From contig JAUYAV010000011.1 in NCBI GenBank assembly GCA_030693325.1, forward strand, positions 1,368 through 65,367: DNA of 64,000 nt, written 5' to 3'. The translations under genes and the position numbers were made by a program. Source of the stretch: a bacterium. Lineage in GTDB: Bacteria > Patescibacteriota > Minisyncoccia > UBA6257 > MFKM01. Position 1 is the first letter of the stretch. Each line of letters starts with the position of its first letter. Below the pieces are notes generated by a model, which searched no databases, was not told the DNA's origin, and worked only from the letters and a program-made list of their open reading frames with translations. Below are positions 2,221-42,935 of this stretch, in pieces.

Positions 2221-2631
2221 TAGCCGGACAATTTGCCCCCAGACCAATTAAGCATTAATGTCTACCGTAAAAAATAAATGCTCAATCGGTGTGTGGGTAA
2301 AGAAGAAAAGATTGAATCGGAAAGAAATTTAAAAAATTAATATGACCCCCGTGCCAAGTCTTTTTTTTGGCGCGGAATTAAATTAGACAATTTTTTGAGG
2401 TAGAGAATTAATAAGGGTATATGGTGGATGCCTTGACACAAAGTGGCGATGAAGGACGTGGCGTAGCTGCGATAAGCCTCGGTGAGGTGCCTAGCAACCT
2501 TTGACCCGGGGATTTCCGAATAGGGAAACCTATTTGCATAAAATGCAAATGATTCCAAATATAAATTTTGGAATAGCAGACCCGCTGAAGTGAAACATCT
2601 CAGTAAGCGGAGGAACAAAAAAAAGATTTTT

Positions 2632-2662
<31 letters not shown>

Positions 2663-2932
2663 GAGCCTAAATTTGTTAAAATTTTCGCAAGAAGATTTTA
2701 ATGAACGTTGCAAGATGGAAATTTTTCTTAAGTTTTAAAGCTTGAAACTTAAGATAAGAGTTACAAATTTGTTGGCTAGTCGAAACCGTTGGAAAGCGGT
2801 GCCAAAGAGAGTGATAGCCTCGTAGACAAAAGTCGGCAAACTCTTAGTTTTTCATTCTTAAGTACTCCGAGGCCAGACAACCTCGGAGGAATCCAGGAGT
2901 ACTATCTCCTAAGGCTAAATACACTTTGTGAT

Positions 2933-2968
<36 letters not shown>

Positions 2969-4938
2969 ATAGGCCGTTGAGGCCGGTGAAATAGAATCTG
3001 AAACCATATACTTACAAGGACTCGGAGCCTTACAATTTCGCAAGAAATAACGGGTGACGAGGTGCCTATTGAAGAATGAGCCAACGACTTTATTTGCATT
3101 GCAAGTTTAACCTCGCGAAGCGAGGGAAGCGAAGGGAAACCAAGTGTTAATAGCGCTAATAGCAGTGCGAGTAAGACCCGAAGCCAAGCGAGCTTGTCCT
3201 GGTCAGGATGAAGGCCGAAGAAATTCGGCTGGAGGTCCGAACCGGTGAGCCGTTCAACACTCTCGGATGAACTGGGATAAGAAGTGAAAAGCTAATCGAG
3301 CTTGGTAATAGCTGGTTCTCTCCAAAATAGTTTTAGGACTAGCGTCGGATAAATAGATTTCTGGGGGTAGAGCACTGGATGATTTGTAAAGGACGAAAGT
3401 TCGACAAATCAATCAAACTCCGAATACCAGATTTTGTTCTCCGGCAGTCAGACTACGGGGGCTAAGCTCCGTGGTCGCGAGGGAAAAAGCCCTGACCGCC
3501 GTCTAAGGTCCCAAAATGTATGCTAAGTGTTAAAGAAAGTCTCCAACCAGAGACAAATAGGAGGTTGGCTTAGAGGTAGCCATCCTTTAAAGAGTGTGTA
3601 ACAACTCACTATCCGATGGTTGGGGGCGTCTAAAATTTATCGGGGCTAAGCATACTACCGAAGACGCGGATTCGTTTTTTGTTTACAAAAAACGAGTGAT
3701 AGGAGAGCATTTCCAGCCGCTGTGAAGGTTGACCCGCGAGGGCGACTGGAGCGCTGGGAAGAGAGAATGTTGGCATGAGTAATCACAAATCAGATGAGAA
3801 ATCTGATCCCCGAAAATCCAAGGTTTCCTCCGCAACGAAAATCGACGGAGGGTTAGGCGGCCCTAAGGCAATGGCGAAAGCCGCAGCTGAAGGACAGTCG
3901 GTTGATATTCCGACCTGCCCATTAATTATCGATGGAGTGACAAAGAAAATAAAATCGCGCGCCTTAATGGTTTGGCGTCATTAATAATAAGATTGGGCAT
4001 CCAGGAAAATCCGGGTGCAAGCCTTTAGTGGCACCCAATCGTTTATCGAAGTAAGGCTAAGTTTTTACTTGGCTAATGCGATTGAAGAGTCTTTCAAGAA
4101 AACCTTCTAAGAGTTATGTTAATGGGCTCCGTACCGTAAACCGCCACAGGTGGGTGAGGCGAGGAGCCTCAGGGGAACGGGTAATTCTTCGTTAAGGAAC
4201 TCGGCAAAAAAGCAGACGTAAGTTCGCAATATGTCTTGGCTGACGCAAGTCAGCCCGCAGCGAAAGAATCTCTGGCGACTGTTTACCAAAAACACAGCTC
4301 CCTGCTAACTCGTAAGAGGATGTATAGGGGGTGACGCCTGACCGATGCGAGAAGGTTAACGGCGGGAGTGCTCTGACGCAAGTTGGAGTGCCCACTGCCC
4401 GAAGCCCTCGTCAATGTCCGCAGTAACTATAACTGTGTTAAAGTAGCGCAATTCCTTTTCAGGTAAGTTCTGAAGCGCACGAATGGCGTAACGATCGGAG
4501 AACTGTCTCAACGAAGAGCCCGATGAAAATGCGATTCCCGTGAAGACGCGGGGTACTGGCAGTAAGACGAAAAGACCCCGGGAGCTTTACTGCAGCTTGA
4601 TATTGTTTTTAGAACTTTAATGCGTAGTGTAGTGGGTAGGCTTTGAAGTTTCGCTTTCGGGCGGAATGGAGCCGACAATGAAACACCCATCTTTCGAGTT
4701 TTAAAATCTAATCTGAACGGCAAAAACGTTCGGAGACACTGTCTGGCGGGCAGTTTTAATGGGGCGTTATCCTCCTAAAGAGTAACGGAGGAGTTTATTA
4801 AGGTCGGCTTAGCCCGGATGGAAATCGGGCTGGACGCGTAAAGGCAAAAGCCGGCTTAACTGCAAGACTGACAAGTCGCGCAGATGCGAAAGCAGAACTT
4901 AGTGACCCGACGATTCTTTATAGAAAGGTCGGAGACAC

Positions 4939-4969
<31 letters not shown>

Positions 4970-5105
4970 GGTGGAGCCCGAGAGTCCATATCGACGGCTC
5001 CGCTCGGCACCTCGATGTCGGCTCACCCTATCCTGGGACTGAAGAAGGCCCCAAGGGTTTGGCTGTTCGCCAATTAAAAGGGTACGCGAGCTGGGTTCAA
5101 ACCGT

Positions 5106-5424
5106 TGAGTTCATAAACATAATTACGGTAATTGCCGTAATTACAGTAATTACTGTAATTTTTATGAATTGAACGGTTTGAATCCGAGGATTATGACATC
5201 AATCACGGCGGTTATAGAAAGTAATTTCTATATTCCAATAGTTTAATTAATTTAGCTAACTAATATCGGTGGAACCCTAATTGATGATTAGGGCAATACC
5301 GAGGGAATTCTTTATAAATTAAAGAAGCCCGTAGAGACTAAGCGTTAGCCTCCGCCAAAATTTTGTAAAAAAATGGGCGGATGAAGATATAGTCCAATAC
5401 ACTTAGTAATAAGTGACCAATATG
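5106..5424 (+). mobile_element. ORF-less group I intron in 23S rRNA at the I-CreI/I-CeuI-type site (exon CCGU|CGUGAGACAGG, about E. coli 2593-2596)
   Basis: exon homology breaks after gggttcaaaccgt and resumes at cgtgagacaggttggtctctatc; the 3' part has the group I P7/P3 signature ggcggatgaagatatagtcc; intron ends in G and the upstream exon in U. Confidence 0.7.
5121..5160. repeat. tandem array of the 8-bp palindrome GTAATTAC (9-bp period) inside the P1/P2 region of intron 1, embedded in a larger hairpin at 5097..5180
   Basis: aattacggtaattgccgtaattacagtaattactgtaatt; same array at 7511..7550 and 17545..17584. Confidence 0.8.
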
Positions 5425-5487
5425 CGTGAGACAGGTTGGTCTCTATCTACTGTCAGCGATGAATACTTGAGGGAAGTCGACTCTAGT

Positions 5488-6235
5488 AAACAAAATTTGC
5501 TACTTTCCGAAGTAATTCGGATTGAAAATTCGGCTAATAACGGTGAAATCTTACCATTTAATTATTACAATCGGTCTTGTGATAATTTACTTGAGGACCA
5601 AGAAATGCTAAGATAATACCGTGGGAAGTCAATCTAAAATCAACTTAGCTTATATAGCTGGATTTCTTGATGGCGATGGAAGCTTAATGCTTCAAATCAA
5701 AAAACGTAAAGAGGGGAATATATCCAAGAGGCGTTTCATGCTAACGATTTGTTTTTATCAAGATTCGCGCCATGATAAGCCCCTTTTATGGATTAGAAAA
5801 ATTTTGGGAATAGGTTATCTTTCCAAAAGAAAAGACGGAATGTCGGAATTAAGAATCAATGGCTTCCGCCAAACGGAAAAGATAATCAAATCTCTGTCGC
5901 CGTTCATTAAATTCAAGAAAGTCCAAGCTAAAATTCTTTTGGCATCGGCGAAGTTGCTTCAAAAAAGCAAACTAACCGGTAACGAATTAAAGAGATTGGT
6001 TGATAATATTCTGAAAATTCAATCAGAAAATTACACAACTAAAAGAAAGAAAACCAAAAGAGAATTGCTAAAAAATTTAGGTTTGACCCCGTAACGACTG
6101 AATTCCGCCGATTGGCGGATGAAGATAATATCAATTTTGATATTATAATACGCCGGCCCCGCTAAAATTTTATTTTTGTAAAAATTTAGGCGGGTGAAGA
6201 TATAGTCTGCGCACATAGTGATATGTGAATTCGTG
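5488..6235 (+). mobile_element. group I intron in 23S rRNA inserted in the sarcin-ricin loop region (exon CUCUAGU|ACGAGAGGACC), carrying a LAGLIDADG homing endonuclease ORF
   Basis: exon homology lost after ctctagt and regained at acgagaggaccgagttgaacg; 3' region has ggcgggtgaagatatagtctg (P7/P3-like); intron ends in G. Confidence 0.7.
5621..6094 (+). CDS. LAGLIDADG homing endonuclease (single-motif, I-CreI-like), intron-encoded, GTG start
   Basis: LAYIAGFLDGDGSL motif; lies wholly within intron 2. Confidence 0.8.
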   Translation: MGSQSKINLAYIAGFLDGDGSLMLQIKKRKEGNISKRRFMLTICFYQDSRHDKPLLWIRKILGIGYLSKRKDGMSELRINGFRQTEKIIKSLSPFIKFKKVQAKILLASAKLLQKSKLTGNELKRLVDNILKIQSENYTTKRKKTKRELLKNLGLTP

Positions 6236-6586
6236 ACGAGAGGACCGAGTTGAACGAACCTCTGGTCTACCGGCTTCAGCACCTGCTGAACCGCCGGGTA
6301 GCTATGTTCGGCCGGGATAAGCGTTGAAAGCATCTAAACGCGAAGCCCCTCCCAAGATTAAGTATCACTAAATAATTTATTATTTAGGTGGTCCCCAGAA
6401 GATTACTGGGTTGATAGGCCTTAGGTGTAAGCTCCGTAAGGAGTTCAGCCGAGAGGTACTAATAGACCATCTATTCTCTACCTCAAAAAGTTGTCTAAAA
6501 TCGTGCTTCACTATTGTTCGGCATAAATCGGCTTTATCAGCATTTATCAGCGTCAGTGGCGAGCGATAGCGAGGCACGAAAATATT

Positions 6587-6696
6587 CCTCGGTGATACAG
6601 TTTATGGTGTCCTACCCGTTCCCATTCCGAACACGGAAGTAAAAGCCATAAACGCCAATGATAGTCCTTCGGGGCGAAAGTAGGCTTTGCCGGGGA
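6587..6696 (+). rRNA. rrf: 5S rRNA
   Basis: CCCGTTCCCATTCCGAACACGGAAGT...GTAGG conserved core; terminal helix cctcgg/ccgggg; followed by a T-run. Confidence 0.8.
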
Positions 6697-8623: not shown

Positions 8624-9653
8624 CAAAAGGGTGAGTTTTATTTTGGTTGGCGGAATAATACTGGCAGCAGTCCTGATTTTGTTTTCTGTTTTTTATTTTA
8701 ACGGGTTGAAGCCGATAGGTTCGGATATAAAATTTGAATTGAAAATTGAAAAAGGGCAGGGATTGAAAGAAATTTCCGCCGCTCTTTCTCAAGCCCGGAT
8801 AATCCGCTCAATAACTGTTTTTAAACTTTACGCTATTTTTACGGGCAAAGCCCGGCATTTGAAATCAGGCATTTATCAATTGAACGGCCGCTTGAGCGTT
8901 CCGGAAATAATTAATTTTTTGATTGATGATTCAAGCCAAGAAGTTTCCATCACTATCACTGAAGGCTCAACTCTTAAAGAAATAGACCGGATTTTGAGTT
9001 CGGCAAATATTATCCCAAAAAATTCATTAGTTAGTTTTTATTTTCCCGTCCATGGCGGGTCCGCCGCAGGCGGAAAAAATGACGAACTAATAAAAGCTTA
9101 TCCTTTCTTGGAAGGTATTGACAATTTAGAGGGTTTCCTTTATCCTGATACTTATCGTTTCAAAATTGACTCTTCAGTCGAAGAGGCAGCTAAAAAATTT
9201 TTTGATAATTTTCAGAACAAAGCTTGGCCGTTAATAAGCCAAAAAAATAATTGGTATCAAATTTTGATTTTAGCTTCTATTTTAGAGAAAGAAGTTCCGG
9301 TTTTTAACGATCAGCAACTGGTGGCGGGGATTCTCAATAAGCGGATAAAAGTGGGAATGCCTATCCAAGTTGACGCGACTGTTCTTTATACTAAATGCCA
9401 AGGGGATTTTTATTCCTGTTCTCAGCGTAAGTTATCAACGGGCGATTTGAAATTGGATTCGCCTTATAACACTTATTTGAATTTAGGCTTGCCGCCGACA
9501 CCCATTGCCAATCCTGGTCAGATGGCGATACAGGCCGCTTTAAGTCCTAAGGCTTCAAATTATTGGTTTTATCTTTCAGATTCCCAAACGAAAGAAACGA
9601 TTTTTTCCGAAACTCTGGAAGATCAAAACAAAAATCGTCAAAAATATCTATAA
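8601..9653 (+). CDS. mltG: endolytic murein transglycosylase MltG (YceG family), paralog 1
   Basis: N-terminal TM; YPDTYRF; VDATVLYT; NTYLNLGLPPTPIANPG. Confidence 0.85.
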   Translation: MQLNPRFNKRVSFILVGGIILAAVLILFSVFYFNGLKPIGSDIKFELKIEKGQGLKEISAALSQARIIRSITVFKLYAIFTGKARHLKSGIYQLNGRLSVPEIINFLIDDSSQEVSITITEGSTLKEIDRILSSANIIPKNSLVSFYFPVHGGSAAGGKNDELIKAYPFLEGIDNLEGFLYPDTYRFKIDSSVEEAAKKFFDNFQNKAWPLISQKNNWYQILILASILEKEVPVFNDQQLVAGILNKRIKVGMPIQVDATVLYTKCQGDFYSCSQRKLSTGDLKLDSPYNTYLNLGLPPTPIANPGQMAIQAALSPKASNYWFYLSDSQTKETIFSETLEDQNKNRQKYL

Positions 9654-9670
9654 AATTATTTAAGATTAAG

Positions 9671-12600
9671 ATGAATTCTTTAACAAAGAAAAATTTCTCT
9701 TCTTATCAAAAACCGTTTATTGAGGAGTCAAATCTAATAGAAATTCAAACTAAATCCTATAAGTGGCTTTTAACCGCCGGCTTAAAAGACCTTTTTGAAG
9801 AATTTTTTCCGATTAAGGACCGAACCGGAAAAGAACTGGAACTTCATTTTCTTGATTTTGATTTTGACGAACCCAAATATGATGAAATTCAAGCTCAGAA
9901 CAAAGAGCAAAGCTACGAAGCCACTCTCCGGGTTAAATTAAAATTAGTAAACAATCTCTCTAAAACCAGCAATACCCAAAAAATTTATTTCGGCGATTTC
10001 CCGATGATGACCGAGCGGGGAACGTTTATTATCAACGGCGTGGAAAGAGTGGTGATTTCCCAGTTAATCAGATCCGCCGGCGTTTATTTCTCGGCCGATA
10101 TTTTCCGGGGACGGAAATTTTTCGGCGCCAAAGTGATTCCTAATAGGGGCGCGTGGCTTGAAATAGAATCCGAACCCAACGGTTTCATCGGCGTAAAAAT
10201 AGACCGGAAAAGAAAAGTTCCGATTACCTGTCTTTTGAGAATTTTTGCCGCGGTTGCCGATAAAAAGAAATCGCTTACCAATGAAGAAATTCTTAAAATT
10301 TTCGGCAAAGCGATTGAACCGACTCTCCTGAAAGATACCGCCTCCAATGATGACGAATCTTTCGTGGAAATTTATAAAAGATTGCGTCCCGGCGATTTAG
10401 CTACGGCTGACAATGCCCGTTCTTTAATCCAGCCGATGTTTTCGCGATTTGACCGTTATGATATTTCTCCGGTTGGCCGTTTTAAAATTAATCAGCGGTT
10501 GGATCTTAAAAAAGAATCGCGACAACTTGATTTGGAAGATCTGATAGCAATTATCAAAGAAATTGTAAAACTTAATAACGAACCGATGGCCGAAGCCGAT
10601 GATATTGACCACCTCGGTAATCGCCGCGTGAGAGCGGTGGGAGAATTGGTTCAGAACAGATTGCGGGTCGGGTTCGCCAGAATGCGCAGGGTTATTCAGG
10701 ACAGGATGTCAACCTTAAACGCTATGGAAATATCAATGCCGACACAGTTGATTAATCCCAAAATTTTGATAGCGGTGGTAAAGGAATTCTTTATGCTTTC
10801 CCAGTTTTCTCAGTTTATGAACCAAGAAAATTTCTTGGCCGAACTTGAGCATAAGCGTTTGCTTTCGGTTTTGGGTCCCGGCGGATTGACTCGCGAGCGG
10901 GCCGGATTTGAAGTCCGCGATGTTCATCGTTCTTACTACGGACGTATTTGCCCGATTCAAACTCCCGAAGGAGCTAATATTGGATTGGTCAATCACTTAG
11001 CCAATCTCAGCCGGGTGAATGAATTCGGTTTCCTGGAGGCGCCATATTATAAAGTTAAAAATGGGATAGTCGGTTTGGAAGTGATCTGGCTTGACGCTTT
11101 TGAGGAAGAAAAATATAACATCGCTCACGCCGCCATTGATATTGATAAAAAAGGAAAAATTTTAGAATCCACGGTTGAAGCGAGAATTAAAGGCGAGCCG
11201 GCCACTTGTTTAAGAGAAGAACTTGATTTTATTGATGCCGCTCCGCATCAGGTTTTTTCCCCGGCCGCTTCCTTGATTCCTTTTATTGAACACGATGACG
11301 CCAACCGGGCGTTAATGGGTTCAAACATGCAACGACAAGCCGTTCCGCTGATTAAACCGGAAGCTCCGTTAGTAGGCACCGGGCTGGAAGGAAAAATCGC
11401 CGAGAATTCCCACCAAGTGATTACCGCTCCGGCTGACGGAGAAATTACCGTCGTTGACGCTAAACATATTGAGCTGAAAACTGCCGCGGGAACAAAAAAA
11501 TATGATTTGATTAAATTCAAACGGTCCAATCAATCAACCTGCATCTCTCAATATCCGGTTATCAAAAAAGGACAAAAAATAAAGAAAGGGGATTTTTTAA
11601 CCAGCGCCTCTTCAATAGACAATGGCCAGTTGGCATTAGGGCAGAATCTTTTAGTGGCTTTCACTCCGTGGGAAGGAGCCAATTTTGAAGATGCGGTTAT
11701 TCTTTCGGAGAGAGTAGTGAATGATGACCGTTTCACGTCCATACATATTGAAGATCACTACTGTGACGTCCGCGAAACCAAACTTGGCCCGGAAATTACT
11801 ACTCCTGATATTCCCAATGTATCCGAAGATAAATTAAGAAACCTTGATGAAGAGGGAACTGTTAGAATTGGAACCGAAGTTAACCCGGATGATATTTTGG
11901 TGGGAAAAATTTCTCCAAAAGGGGAATCTGAATTAACCTCCGAAGAACGTTTATTGAGGGCTATTTTTGGCGAAGAAGCCCGCGATGTTAAAGACACTTC
12001 TCTGGTAATGCCTCACGGAGAACAAGGGCGGGTTATTGGCATAAAAATTTCTTCCCGTGAAAAAGGAGACCAACTTGACCCGGGCGTCATAAAAAGAATC
12101 CAAATCCAGGTAGCCCAGTTAAGCAATATCCAGGTCGGCGATAAATTGACGGGCCGCCACGGAAATAAAGGCGTCATTTCTCAAATCAGACCGGTTGAAG
12201 ACATGCCTTATCTTGAAGATGGAACGCCGGTTGACGTGATTCTTAATCCTTTGGGCGTTGCTTCCCGGATGAATATCGGCCAAATTTTGGAAACCCATTT
12301 GGGTTTTGCCGCCAAAAAATTAGGATATCAGGCGGTTACTCCGATTTTCACCGGCGCTTCTGAAGACCAAATAAGAGAAGAACTCAAGAAAGCCGGTCTG
12401 CCGGAAGACGGAAAAGTAAAAATTTTTGACGGCCGGACCGGTGAAGCTTTCCGTAATCCGATAACGGTCGGCTACATATATGTAATGAAGCTTAACCACT
12501 TGGTTAAAGATAAAATTCACATGCGGTCTACCGGCCCCTACTCTCTTATCACTCAACAGCCCTTGGGCGGCAAAGCGCGTCTTGGCGGCCAGCGTTTCGG

Positions 12601-15600
12601 AGAAATGGAAGTCTGGGCCCTTGAAGGGTACGGCGCCAGTCATACGCTTCAGGAAATGCTTACTATTAAATCCGATGACGTAATGGGCCGTTCTTCAACT
12701 TTTGAATCCATAATCAAAGGAGAAAAAATCAAAAAACCCAGTTTACCGGCTTCCTTCAATGTTTTGGTAAGTGAAATTAAAAGCTTGGGATTGGACGTGG
12801 AAATAATAAAATCCAACGACCAAAAAGACAGGTTGGAAAAAGACCTTAAAGATATTCAGGCTATTTCCATAAAATTGGCCTCGCCGGAAAAAATTATTTC
12901 TTGGTCTTCAGGAGAAGTCACTAAAGCCGAAACCATCAACTACCGCACCCAACGACCCGAAAAAGACGGATTATTTTCCGAGAGAATTTTCGGACCGACC
13001 AAGGACTGGGAATGTTATTGCGGCAAATATAAAAAAATCCGTTACAAAGGCGTGGTCTGCGACAAGTGCGGCGTTGAAGTCACTCGCTCAATAGTCAGAC
13101 GCGAACGGATGGGGCACATTAATTTAGCCGCTCCGGTTGTTCATATTTGGTTTCTGAAAAGCGTCCCTTCAAGATTAAGTTTGATTCTTGACGCGCCCCT
13201 GCCGAAACTGGAAAAAGTCATTTATTACGCCTCCTATATTGTCACGGCTATTAATAAAGACAGCAAAGATTATGAATTTAAAAAGAAAGAACTGCTTGCC
13301 GAAAATATCAAACCAGGGACAATTTTGAACGAGAACGAATATCTTGATTTAAGCGAACGTTTTGAAAAAACCTTGGAAATTAAATCCGGCGCCGAGGCGA
13401 TTCGGAAAATTTTAGAGAACTTAGACCTTAAAACTCTGGTTCATCAGCTGGAAAAAGAACTAGAAGAGACCAAAGACGCCAATCGCCAAATACGAATTTT
13501 AAAACGGCTCAATTTGGTAAAATCCATGATAAAATCCGGCATCAGACCCGAATGGATGATTATGAATGTCTTGCCGGTTTTGCCTCCCGATTTAAGGCCG
13601 ATGGTCGCTTTAGACGGCGGTCGTTTCGCCACTTCCGACCTTAACGATCTTTATCGGAGAGTTATTAATCGCAATAATCGTTTGAAGAAACTGCTTGAAT
13701 TGAAAGCGCCGGAAGTGATTGTCACTAACGAAAAGCGAATGTTGCAGGAAGCCGTTGACGCTTTAATAGACAACGCCAGTTCCATCGGCGCCCAACAACT
13801 TTCCGCTCAGCGCCGTCCATTAAAATCCCTGGCTGATATGCTCCGGGGCAAACAGGGCCGTTTCCGCCAAAATCTTTTGGGCAAACGGGTTGATTATTCC
13901 GGCCGCTCCGTAATTGTCGTCGGCCCCGAATTAAAACTTGGCGAATGCGGTTTGCCTAAAAAAATGGCCTTGGAACTTTTTCGTCCTTTTATTATCCATA
14001 AAGTTATTGAACGCAGTTTGGCTCATAATATTAAAAACGCCAATAAATTTATTGACCAGGGTTCGGACGAGGTCTGGGCGATTTTAGAAGAAGTCATCGC
14101 GGACAAAAAAGTACTGCTTAACCGGGCGCCGACTCTCCACCGTTTGAGCATCCAGGCCTTTAAACCGATTCTTGTGGAAGGATTGGCTATTAAAATTCCG
14201 CCGCTGGTTTGCGCGGCTTTTAATGCCGACTTTGACGGCGACCAAATGGCCGTCCATCTGCCGCTTTCCGAAGAAGCTCAATATGAAGCCAGAGAACTCA
14301 TACTCTCTACGGTTAATCTCTTGAAACCGGCTTCAGGCCACCCGGTCGTCAGTCCTACTCAGGATATCGTCTTGGGCTGTTATTTCCTTACCAAACTCCA
14401 GCCGGAAGCGAAGGGAAAAAATTCAATCTTTTCAAGCTTTGCCGAAGCCACTTTGGCTTATGAGCGCGGTTTTCTTGACCTTAACGCGCCGATTAAAATC
14501 GCCCTTCCGAAAAGAAGCAAAAAACTCATAGATACAACTTATGGCCGTTTAATCTTCAATAATCAGCTTCCGAAAAATTTTGATTTTATCAACGAACTGC
14601 TCAATAAAACCGCTCTCTCAAAAATCAGTTCCTTGATTATAGAAAAAGTGGGCATCAATCAAGCCGCCGTTTATTTGGACAACATTAAAAATATCGGCTT
14701 TGAATACGCCACCATTTCCGGAATTACCTGGGGAATGGACGATTTGAAAATACCGGAACAAAAACCTCAAATCATTGAAAAAGCGGAAAAAGAAGTAGCC
14801 ACGGTCAATGACGAATTCCGCCAGGGATTATTAACTAACGAAGAAAGAAAAAATCAGGTTATTATTATTTGGGATAAAACCAATAAAGAAATCGCCAGTC
14901 TTGTTCCTAAAACATTCCATCCCGACAATCCTGTCTTTATTATTTTAGATTCCAAAGCCCGCGGCGGCTGGGCGCAAACGGCCCAGATGACCGGCATGAA
15001 AGGATTGGTTATCAACCCGAGTGGAGAAGTCATTGAATTGCCCGTTAAATCATCTTATAAAGAAGGATTGGACATTTTAGAATACTTTATTTCCATTCAC
15101 GGCGCCCGCAAAGGCCAGGCCGACACCGCGCTCAGAACGGCAGAAGCCGGATATTTGACCCGCCGTTTGATTGATGTAGCCCAGGACGTAATAATCCAGG
15201 AGGAGGATTGCCAAACAGAAGAAGGAATTGAAATTTTCAGAAAAGAAGGGGACGAATACGGTTATCATTTTGCCGAGCGGCTTTATTCGCGAACGGCTTT
15301 GGAAAATATAAAAATTAAAAGCAAAATTATCGTGAAAGCCGGTGAAGTTATCGGCCGCGAAGCCGCCGAGCTTATTGATAAATCAAAAGTGGAATCAGCT
15401 AAGGTCCGCTCGCCGATTACCTGTAAAACTCTTTACGGAATTTGTTCGCGCTGTTACGGCTTGGATTTAGGAACTAACCAGCCGATAAAACTGGGAGAAG
15501 CTGTCGGGATTATCGCCGCTCAATCAATCGGCGAGCCCGGAACTCAGCTTACTTTGAGAACCTTCCATTCCGGCGGCGTGGCCGGGATTGATATCACCCA

Positions 15601-16363
15601 CGGTTTGCCGCGGGTAGAAGAGGTTTTTGAAGCCCGTTCGCCTCGCGGGAAAGCCATCCTGGCCGAAACTGATGGCGTTGTTGAATCCATTAAAGAAGAT
15701 AATTCAATAAAAATCGTAAAAATAAAAAGTTCGGCTTCAAAAGGCAAAAAAGCCAAATATTTTGAATATACGATTCCTCGGACGACCATCCTTTTGGTAA
15801 AAACCAATGACAAAATCGTTAAGGGCCAGCAAGTCAGCGAAGGTTCAATTAATTTAAAAGAGCTTTTAATCGCCCAAAATAGCCGAGAAGTGGAGCGCTA
15901 TATCGTCAACGAAATTCAAAAAATTTATGTCCCCGAAGGAACTATTATCAATGACAAGCATATTGAAATAATCATCCGCCAAATGTTTTCTCGGGTAACA
16001 ATTAAAGAAGAAGGAGATACTAATTTTGTCATCGGCGATGTCATTGAAAAATCAAAATTCTTGGAAGTTAACCGGCAAACCAAAAAACTCAAAGGCGAAC
16101 CGGCAAAAGCCCAGCTTATTTTGATGGGCATCACCCAGGTCAGCTTAACCACTGAAAGTTTCCTCTCGGCGGCTTCTTTCCAGGAAACTTCTCGCGTCTT
16201 GGTAGGGGCGGCCATCAGCGGCAAGGTTGATAAACTCCGCGGCCTTAAAGAAAACGTGATTATCGGCCGCTTGATTCCGGCTGGCATCGGCTGGCGGGGA
16301 ATACCCGTGGAAGCCGTCAGCGACGAAGAAGAAAATAAAGAGATTGAAGAAGGCAACAAATAA
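9671..16363 (+). CDS. rpoBC: fused DNA-directed RNA polymerase beta-beta' (rpoB-rpoC) in one uninterrupted reading frame; junction near nt 12850
   Basis: RpoB motifs ([15 protein letters not shown], rif region [18 protein letters not shown]) run without a stop into RpoC motifs ([28 protein letters not shown]); ATG at 9671 begins [11 protein letters not shown]. Confidence 0.9.
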
Positions 16364-41564: not shown

Positions 41565-41760
41565 TAAATATGAGACCTAACCCGTAGGGGCAACCTACGG
41601 CAGGGTTATAAAAACCAGTAACGGATAAAAAGCTCCTAGTCAGAGCTCCGTTACTGGTCATATGGGGAAACCCGTATGGGGGTCGCAAGACCTCGCTGGC
41701 TGGGAGCTTTGTGTTTTCATAAAGCTAAAATGTCGAACCCAGCTAGCGTTAGTTTCTTTA
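41565..41760 (+). ncRNA. GC-rich structured leader or candidate cis-regulatory RNA upstream of a secreted-protein gene
   Basis: stack of hairpins in AT-rich surroundings: cgtagg-GGCAA-cctacg (GNRA loop), accagtaacgga...tccgttactggt, ggtc-GCAA-gacc, repeated cccgtaNgggg; identity unknown. Confidence 0.3.
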
Positions 41761-41768
41761 ATAACTTT

Positions 41769-42935
41769 ATGAAAAATAAAATAATTTCTCTATTTCTAAT
41801 ATTTAGCTGTCTTTCGTTTTACTTAGTTTGGCCGGCTAATGCCTTAGCTGGTGTTTCTGATTTTACGGGCTGTCCAGCTTACAACGGCGGTTTGCAAGGA
41901 AGTGATGATTGTTATAAAGGATTGCGGGGCGATGGAGGTTCTTGTGAGTATGGAGTAGGAAGTATAAGGGGCACTGCAAATTTTTCCACGGCCGAACCAA
42001 AACTTCCCTTTCCGGAAGGAACAATTCTAAGGTGTAAAGGCATTTCTCGTACAGGTGGTTGGTCTCGTCATCGGATATACATGGATAGAATCTATCCCTA
42101 TACTAAAAGCAGAATTGCCGGTTTATCCGAAAATGGCTATGAGGTTATTTTAGAGAAAGGCGAAATGAAAAGAAAAAGTTTAGGATTTTATCCGGCAGCA
42201 GATGGAAGATATACGCATTGTACCCAATATACGGGCGGAGAATGCACGGGCGAAATAGTTTATTTAGATGAATATGAAAAAACTCTTTCTTCTGAAGATA
42301 TACCTTATCTGACAAAAGATTGTAATATTTGGGGTAGACTGGGAAAGTGTGTATATTGGGCTTCGGAAAAGAAAAATTTTGAGAATCTTATTACTAAAGA
42401 CGTAATGGAGGTGGTAGACAAAACCGAACGAACTTTTAGTTGGACCGATGAAGACGAAGATTGGTTTTCAACCACGGTCACTTCTCATGTTGACTATAAG
42501 GCCTATCTTTTAACCGCTTACGGTTCTATTTTTAGGTATCACAAATACCAAGAAGAAAGCAAAACTTCCTGGGGAGGATGGGGTTTTGCTATCATAGGAG
42601 CTGTTTTTGGAGCGTTTCTTACTCCTTTTCTTCCGGTTTTGGGAATTTTTGGCTCTTTTTTGGCTTCAGCAATGCCAGTGATAAGCGGCAGTATTTTTGC
42701 CAACCTGACAATGCTTGGGGGATATTTGACTTCGCAGGCCTTGGGGAAAACGACCAATCTTGACGGGGGAGAGCTTACTCTTGTTTATGTGCCGGATTAT
42801 TCTTATTCAACTTCAACAGACTCAACATTGACAATGCCGCCAATAGCGACCTCAACAATAGAGGGGTTTCAAACTCCGGCAGTACAACCGGCCCAGCCAA
42901 CGCCCGATTTCAAAATAAAAGAAATTAAACCGTAA
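41769..42935 (+). CDS. hypothetical secreted Cys-rich protein with C-terminal TM segments and Ser/Thr-rich tail
   Basis: signal peptide MKNKIISLFLIFSCLSFYLVWPANALA; the ORF track's earlier start at 41676 lies in the structured leader. Confidence 0.5.
   Translation: MKNKIISLFLIFSCLSFYLVWPANALAGVSDFTGCPAYNGGLQGSDDCYKGLRGDGGSCEYGVGSIRGTANFSTAEPKLPFPEGTILRCKGISRTGGWSRHRIYMDRIYPYTKSRIAGLSENGYEVILEKGEMKRKSLGFYPAADGRYTHCTQYTGGECTGEIVYLDEYEKTLSSEDIPYLTKDCNIWGRLGKCVYWASEKKNFENLITKDVMEVVDKTERTFSWTDEDEDWFSTTVTSHVDYKAYLLTAYGSIFRYHKYQEESKTSWGGWGFAIIGAVFGAFLTPFLPVLGIFGSFLASAMPVISGSIFANLTMLGGYLTSQALGKTTNLDGGELTLVYVPDYSYSTSTDSTLTMPPIATSTIEGFQTPAVQPAQPTPDFKIKEIKP

Follow-up and report, generated by a model that had tools for sequence, protein, structure and literature searches.

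The window analysed here, a 64,000-nt stretch of contig JAUYAV010000011.1, contains the 23S–5S rRNA operon of a bacterium of the candidate phyla radiation (CPR), and this operon very probably carries two group I introns that are to be spliced out to restore helix 93 (H93) at the peptidyl-transferase centre and the sarcin-ricin loop of the 23S rRNA, both essential to the ribosome. The case is built on the anatomy of the two inserts, their boundaries, covariation within their families, homology, and presence/absence polymorphism among relatives. Coordinates are positions in the window, and all features of the operon are on the + strand (Table 1).

Table 1 Features of the 23S–5S rRNA operon and its two introns.
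Feature	Position	Strand	Details
23S rRNA gene including both introns	~2399-6484	+	RF02541 match; intron-free sequence aligned globally to E. coli rrlH
23S exons	2399-5105, 5425-5487, 6236-6484	+	
Exon between the introns	5425-5487	+	63 nt, E. coli 2594-2656; covariance and rrlH alignment
Intron 1	5106-5424	+	open reading frame (ORF)-less group I intron after U2593 (site L2593, in H93, beside the peptidyl-transferase loop)
Long hairpin across the 5′ splice site of intron 1	5094-5185	+	exon 5094-5105 with intron 5173-5185; minimum free energy (MFE) fold
a′ element of intron 1	5177-5184	+	UUUGAAUC; complement of 5′ exon nt -12 to -5 (E. coli 2582-2589)
Internal guide sequence of intron 1	5203-5213	+	UCACG/GCGGUU; read from sequence
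P2 hairpin of intron 1	5213-5232	+	UAUAGAAA-GUAA-UUUCUAUA, GNRA loop, directly 3′ of guide; sequence and predicted fold
Intron 2	5488-6235	+	IA-like group I intron after U2656, inside the sarcin-ricin loop (AGU^ACGAGAGGACC)
P1 of intron 2	5484-5490 with 5496-5502	+	U5487·G5499 at splice site
P2 of intron 2	5506-5521	+	GUAA loop
5′ core of intron 2	5530-5630	+	P3 5′ strand 5530-5534; P4 5540-5545 with 5617-5622; P5 5548-5552 with 5610-5614, plus P5 extension; P6 5′ strand 5623-5630
Predicted homing-endonuclease gene	5621-6094	+	157 aa, GTG start, in P6 loop of intron 2
3′ core of intron 2	6085-6207	+	P6 3′ strand 6085-6090; P7 6096-6100 with 6203-6207; P7.1 6105-6118; P7.2 6125-6146; P3 3′ strand 6152-6156; P8 ~6158-6194; J8/7 6195-6202
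P9 of intron 2	6209-6235	+	closing helix 6209-6211 with 6232-6234; hairpin 6212-6227, GUGA loop; terminal G6235
5S rRNA gene	6587-6696	+	same operon, downstream of 23S; RF00001, 51.8 bits

Boundaries of the two inserts

Covariance alignment of the 23S rRNA gene leaves 321 and 758 bases unaligned, which correspond to two large inserts in the 3′ domain. When 5106-5424 (319 nt) and 5488-6235 (748 nt) are excised, the local alignment to E. coli rrlH is gapless over both junctions, and the joined exons read GGUUCAAACCGU/CGUGAGACAG at junction 1 and CUCUAGU/ACGAGAGGACC at junction 2. With GTTTAGAACGTCGTGAGACAG beginning at 2583 and AGTACGAGAGGACC beginning at 2654 as anchors for the E. coli numbering, insert 1 lies after U2593 (U2593/C2594) and insert 2 after U2656 (U2656/A2657). 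The boundary of insert 1 is unambiguous. That of insert 2 slides by 1 base (A5488 = A6236), and 5488-6235 is chosen because it leaves a U upstream and a G at the end, as the group I rule demands. Both inserts are thus preceded by an exonic U (U5105 and U5487) and end in G (G5424 and G6235). An earlier note on this DNA had given these same coordinates and these same terminal bases, with the first insert at the 2593 homing site and the second inside the sarcin-ricin loop; the rrlH alignment agrees with it to the base.

The two introns share the motif GGCGG(A/G)UGAAGAUAUAGUC, located at 5376-5394 and 6189-6207. Its presence near both 3′ ends had been pointed out in the earlier note, where it was labelled P7/P3; that label has to be corrected, as the motif comprises the P8 3′ strand, then J8/7, then the P7 3′ strand.

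Alignment to E. coli reveals no further large insert within this 23S rRNA gene. The largest residual is a 68-nt expansion (2667-2736), which falls near E. coli 23S position 268, and small deletions are present near E. coli 1704-1748. The ends called by cmscan are untrustworthy on intron-bearing 23S rRNA genes; here the gene is called at 2401-5260, with a misplaced 3′ end. No 16S rRNA gene is found within 2.4 kb upstream of the 23S rRNA gene, i.e. the 16S gene is unlinked upstream.

The 23S exons are 84-88% identical to those of Parcubacteria, Paceibacter, Harrisonbacteria, and Colwellbacteria metagenome-assembled genomes, and homologues of the intron-encoded protein carry the names Patescibacteria, Minisyncoccia, and Daviesbacteria. 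Judged from these rRNA and endonuclease similarities, the host is a CPR/Patescibacteria bacterium of the Parcubacteria/Paceibacteria type.

Intron 1 at L2593

Within intron 1, residues 5190-5416 match the full length (positions 1-253) of the group I intron model RF00028, with 77.9 bits against a threshold of 50. It has no ORF of 40 aa or more, in keeping with the earlier note.

The internal guide sequence is positioned to pair with both exons. Residues 5208-5213 (GCGGUU) form P1 with residues 5100-5105 of the 5′ exon (AACCGU), placing a U5105·G5208 wobble at the splice site, and residues 5203-5207 (UCACG) form a 5-bp P10 with residues 5425-5429 of the 3′ exon (CGUGA). A set of 25 related L2593 introns shares the guide CACGGCGG: the four P1 pairs and the U·G splice-site pair are kept in all 25, and the P10 cells are 94% paired.

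An intron is present at L2593 in 41 of the 75 related loci that bear the sarcin-ricin-loop intron and absent from the other 34. Most L2593 relatives end in G, but not all. The ORF-containing L2593 intron of a Patescibacterium from Hainich groundwater (L002, 3081-3784; also L003, L004, and L019) seems to end in A (..gataatata/CGTGAGACAG); the terminal-G rule may have an exception here, or else the exon boundary may lie elsewhere.

Intron 2 in the sarcin-ricin loop

Intron 2 is defined by its family. One genome per species was scanned for GAAGATATAGTC, followed by 10-40 nt and then GACGAGAGGACC. At least 120 loci with the intron 2 junction are found in these species-representative genomes, almost all of them labelled Patescibacteria/CPR. 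The junctions YUAGU/A...G/ACGAGAGGACC are identical in every locus with a locatable upstream exon, the terminal G being imposed by the search pattern.

Four loci (L050, L074, L084, and L068) have the sarcin-ricin-loop intron in records labelled Gammaproteobacteria, Nanoarchaeota, or WS2. These records are probably mis-binned CPR DNA, although they could mean that the intron occurs outside CPR. In L047, tRNA matches that seemed to lie inside the 23S rRNA gene were dismissed, being the tRNA-Ala of the 16S-23S spacer.

The fold is supported from P1 to P9 in 82 distinct family members. P1 (UAGU/GCUA) has the U·G wobble in 82/82. P2, capped by a GNRA loop, is paired in 81-82/82 and shows five to six pair types per position. 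P3 covaries (CG/UA and GC/AU). P4, P6, and P7 are invariant and paired, with the four core P7 pairs invariant in 82/82. The closing helix of P9 covaries, the pair 6209-6234 being GC in 33 members, AU in 26, and GU in 23. RNAalifold recovers P1, P2, P3, P4, P5, P6, P8, and P9 from the same members, with 47 pairs that are 98.6% paired; compensatory pair types occur at 24 of the 47 pairs, compared with 8-11 in controls with the partners slid by 1-3 columns. In addition, the smallest ORF-less member (L043, 296 nt) matches the full RF00028 model with 55.8 bits. The family-level evidence settles the identity of intron 2 as a group I intron.

A 14-nt segment between P7 and P3, GGCGGAUGAAGAUA (6114-6127), resembles the intron's own P8-3′/J8-7 at 6190-6203 (GCGGGUGAAGAUAU), and L020 and L040 are among the few relatives with GAUGAAGAU at this position. 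Instead of a partial duplication of P8/J8-7, as was first considered, the segment is reread as the P7.1 3′ strand plus the P7.2 5′ strand, in a region that is variable in relatives, though it may be the remnant of a duplication.

The LAGLIDADG endonuclease

The GTG start codon of the ORF in intron 2 lies within the conserved P4/P6 sequence CCGUGGGAAGUC, four codons downstream of an in-frame stop, and its UAA stop codon lies within the J6/7 sequence CCCCGUAACGACU. In ORF-less relatives the blocks on either side of the ORF align and are conserved, indicating that the ORF fills the P6 loop.

The protein matches Pfam LAGLIDADG_1 (PF00961) with 41.1 bits (cut-off 23.1) and has one domain with one motif, LAYIAGFLDGDGS, so that the GTG-initiated, single-motif LAGLIDADG ORF of the earlier note stands. 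In the PDB, residues 6-154 are covered by matches to I-CvuI (2.5e-16), I-CreI (~1e-11), and I-MsoI (1e-9); matches with higher scores (to 1e-24) are engineered tandem derivatives. The Asp residues of the motif are retained, as are the residues aligned to Q47 and K98 of I-CreI. By these similarities the ORF is predicted to encode a single-motif, homodimer-type LAGLIDADG endonuclease of the I-CreI type. The DNA at the insertion point, CTCTAGT/ACGAGAG, is partly two-fold symmetric (6/7 positions match, centre GTAC), which would fit recognition by a homodimer.

Database homologues of the protein number 2670; the best 120 are 64-80% identical and ~157 aa long. Apart from one identical, unannotated Logan read-assembly entry, the nearest is 80% identical. 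Full-length homologues with 43-76% identity to the window enzyme are encoded by 63 of the sarcin-ricin-loop introns collected, whereas the endonucleases in CPR L2593 introns are only 29-40% identical to it (tblastn). Therefore, the enzyme belongs to a site-specific clade and is not a relocated I-CreI orthologue.

An exon-complementary hairpin in intron 1

The first 80 nt of intron 1 and the last 12 bases of the exon form a long hairpin across the 5′ splice site, with an MFE of -59.6 kcal/mol (z = -9.9). In its outer stem, GGUUCAAACCGU of the exon is paired to ACGGUUUGAAUCC of the intron. The interior (5118-5160) is variable, repeat-like filler of GUAAUUAC units; in relatives it is hypervariable and often consists of short tandem repeats, e.g. 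GGCAGUAG-type units in L091.

This hairpin is not P1 of intron 1. It would put U2593 opposite A, and the four bases opposite CCGU are poorly conserved (ACGG, ACAG, CCAA, GCAA, and others). In contrast, the conserved sequence UCACG/GCGG beside P2 gives both a U·G-containing P1 and a 5-bp P10.

The outer stem contains the a′ element. An 8/8 complement of exon nt -12 to -5 is present upstream of the guide in 25 of the 41 L2593 introns; L011, L017, L025, L035, L036, L040, L047, L053, and L059 are among the loci that have it. The a′ element tracks exon polymorphisms at two positions, with C-G replaced by U-A in two introns and G-C alternating with A-U in eight. Because these 25 introns were picked for 8/8 pairing, a figure of 100% paired is circular; this circularity does not extend to the compensatory changes or to the constant position. 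The covariation with the exon indicates selection for pairing.

Tentatively, a′ may be a second exon-binding element of the L2593 intron besides the canonical guide, a proposal that we consider rather doubtful. The a′ element precedes the guide in the intron and its exon target adjoins the 4-bp P1, so the a′ and P1 helices would form a pseudoknot-like split guide, which could clamp the 2.6-kb 5′ exon once step one of splicing is complete. This arrangement would be closer to the logic of exon-binding sites EBS1 and EBS2 in group II introns than to the textbook group I intron, and a shallow literature search returned nothing specific on a second guide sequence or a pseudoknot of this kind in group I introns. 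Alternatively, the hairpin may mask the splice site until it is remodelled, or compete with P1. This is more likely in the window, since the pairing passes through the splice site (U5105 opposite A5173).

It is about equally doubtful that the 5′ hairpin (5106-5171 plus a′) arrived in the P1 loop as an independent palindrome or repeat and has no role in the ribozyme. The repeat-like interior (GUAAUUAC), hypervariable in sequence and length and made of tandem repeats in several relatives, would suit such an element, as would the absence of the hairpin from simple L2593 introns such as that of L016. However, a′ itself is invariant in position, upstream of the guide in those 25 of 41 introns, and follows the exon at two polymorphic positions, a pattern indicative of selection for pairing.

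Proposed splicing and competing explanations

By analogy with established group I and LAGLIDADG biology, splicing, endonuclease activity, and target specificity would be as follows. Both introns would fold within the pre-rRNA, and the guide UCACG/GCGGUU of intron 1 would align the 5′ exon (P1, with the U2593·G wobble) and the 3′ exon (P10). Exogenous guanosine would attack after the wobble U (U2593 or U2656), and the freed 3′-OH of the exon would attack after the terminal G, ligating the exons and restoring H93 and the sarcin-ricin loop. An endonuclease dimer would cut intronless DNA at about CTCTAGT^ACGAGAGGACC, and double-strand-break repair would copy the intron into the cut allele.

Several observations weigh against two introns that splice in this manner. 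Intron 2 alone scores 20.6 bits against RF00028, below the threshold of 50, and the match is partial (6158-6226, model positions 160-251, P8-P7-P9 only). Only one of five ORF-less relatives tested passes the threshold. A convincing P10 for intron 2 is not found, and the exon contributes only 4 bp to its P1. Upstream of the endonuclease GTG, no Shine-Dalgarno sequence can be recognised. In intron 1, the most stable local fold pairs the splice-site U5105 with A5173 rather than with the guide G, and thereby competes with P1.

The low score of intron 2 can be attributed to the extra P7.1 and P7.2 hairpins between the P7 5′ strand and the P3 3′ strand and to the 460-nt ORF in P6, which are unmodelled. 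The earlier note had called both inserts group I introns and had named a covariance search as one way to check this. Intron 1 passes that search; intron 2 taken alone is borderline, and it is the covariation of its family that upholds the assignment.

The sub-threshold score could also be read as a sign that the inserts are intervening sequences (IVSs) or expansion segments, either retained in mature 23S rRNA or excised by RNase III without ligation to give a fragmented 23S rRNA, like classical bacterial IVSs. The long near-perfect hairpin with which intron 1 opens is an RNase III-type substrate, and Tsurumaki et al. (PMC11270868) consider IVSs probable for some of the CPR insertions. However, the complete group I core, the U·G wobble at the 5′ splice site, and the terminal G of both inserts are at odds with such an origin. 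Moreover, function would be expected to be lost if H93 or the sarcin-ricin loop were broken or kept a 748-nt insert, and these are the elements in which the inserts lie. The known IVS sites, 23IS2 and 23IS4, are elsewhere (PMC11270868). Taken together, we regard the IVS explanation as hardly credible.

A less remote alternative, though still an unlikely one, is that both inserts are real group I introns incapable of self-splicing, whose folding and splicing depend on the LAGLIDADG protein in the role of maturase or on a host chaperone. The short exon P1 and missing P10 of intron 2 are what such an intron might show, and the very stable competing hairpin of intron 1 would mask its splice site. 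A LAGLIDADG maturase is known for a Thermotoga 23S intron (PMC3984707). On the other hand, intron 1 has no ORF, and many family members have lost the ORF and kept an intact core, indicating that the intron's own protein is not generally required.

Mobility and intronless alleles

The P6 loops of the intron 2 family fall into three groups of 13-52, 89-294, and 428-485 nt, which correspond to stages of the homing cycle in which the ORF is lost, decaying, or intact. Empty sites are observed as well. Three contigs in a metagenome scan have the spliced sarcin-ricin-loop junction within the lineage's own helix-95 flanks. One of them, locus L128, whose 23S rRNA is ~85% identical to that of the window, has an identical 32-nt flank, no intron at 2656, and an intron at 2593; its intronless sarcin-ricin-loop site reads GTCGACTCTAGTACGAGAGGACCGAGTTGAAC. 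The comparison with intron-minus 23S alleles put forward in the earlier note is provided by this locus. Conversely, L005 has the sarcin-ricin-loop intron and an intact 2593 site. From L128, L005, and the 41 versus 34 loci with and without an L2593 intron, it follows that the two introns come and go independently. Among the relatives, every stage of the homing cycle is thus represented, by introns with an intact, a decayed, or no ORF and by empty sites.

Other features of the window

Two features outside the operon were recorded. A single 2266-aa ORF at 9563-16363 (+) has RpoB domains at aa 58-1083 followed in frame by RpoC domains at aa 1096-2166, and looks like a compact fused rpoB-rpoC (β-β′) gene. 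A LOOT RNA (RF03000) at 41574-41694 (+) matches the full model with 92 bits (threshold 46.4) and is located immediately upstream of an ORF at 41676-42935, with a 19-nt overlap.

Discussion

Both insertion sites are already catalogued in CPR; this copy is new, the sites are not. Tsurumaki et al. (2024, J Bacteriol) list positions 2593, 2604, and 2657 (23IS12-14) as frequent sites of group I introns and LAGLIDADG_1 ORFs in CPR 23S rRNA genes, 82% of which carry insertions in their survey (PMC11270868). Position 2593 is 23IS12 and position 2657 is 23IS14; 23IS13 and 23IS14 are noted by these authors as unknown in other bacteria (PMC11270868). Our 2656 and their 2657 are one site, within the 1-nt boundary ambiguity of the rrlH alignment. 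The window agrees with their description in host group, both positions, group I type, and the single-domain LAGLIDADG_1 ORF at 2657. It differs in its sequence, which is new, and their paper neither models the secondary structure of the 2657 intron nor mentions an exon-complementary element in the introns at 2593. According to PMC11270868, Brown et al. (2015) reported that transcripts lack the CPR rRNA insertions, and both cleavage of its site and dimerisation have been demonstrated for I-ShaI, another LAGLIDADG enzyme of a CPR rRNA intron (PMC11270868). A literature search combining 'sarcin-ricin loop' and 'group I intron' returned nothing relevant. The earlier note had called a sarcin-ricin-loop insertion unusual, which is true only outside CPR; within CPR, the published catalogue (PMC11270868) and the at least 120 loci found here contradict it.

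Position 2593 is the classic I-CreI/I-MsoI site (PMC3315327). Intron 1 shares it with the introns of the Chlamydomonas chloroplast (Cr.LSU, I-CreI) and Monomastix (I-MsoI) (PMC3315327), and the enzyme of intron 2 is a homodimer-type, single-motif relative of theirs. In contrast to these systems, the 2593 intron of the window is ORF-less and the I-CreI-like gene sits in the other intron, at 2656; its target must therefore differ from that of I-CreI.

L2593 is also used in cyanobacteria (PMC1995217). The introns of Synechococcus C9, S. lividus C1, and Thermosynechococcus are similar to those of the window in that several group I introns occur in a bacterial 23S rRNA gene (PMC1995217), that single-LAGLIDADG ORFs run into core helices, and that P7.1/P7.2 and a short P2 are present, as in intron 2. 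P7.1/P7.2 is the IA-type periphery of cyanobacterial L2593 introns and of the Twort ribozyme, and overlap between ORF ends and core helices is a known trait of such introns (PMC1995217). However, the cyanobacterial introns have these features at L2593 and not in the sarcin-ricin loop, and an L2656 intron is unreported there (PMC1995217). The phage IA introns Twort orf142-I2 and T4 td likewise have P7.1/P7.2 hairpins between P7 and P3. This likeness is architectural only. The phage introns are in protein-coding genes and have other endonuclease families or none.

For annotation, the analysis provides exact splice junctions of this 23S rRNA gene, and for the sarcin-ricin-loop intron family an IA-like structure model in which the ORF occupies P6 and both starts and stops within core sequences. 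The endonucleases form a large conserved clade at one of the most conserved sequences in biology and could interest meganuclease engineers; L128 offers a natural intronless target. The window adds little, being a further, clearly bounded case of the intron-rich 23S rRNA genes that are typical of CPR. The covarying a′ element is the only feature that may be instructive on how group I introns handle long structured exons.

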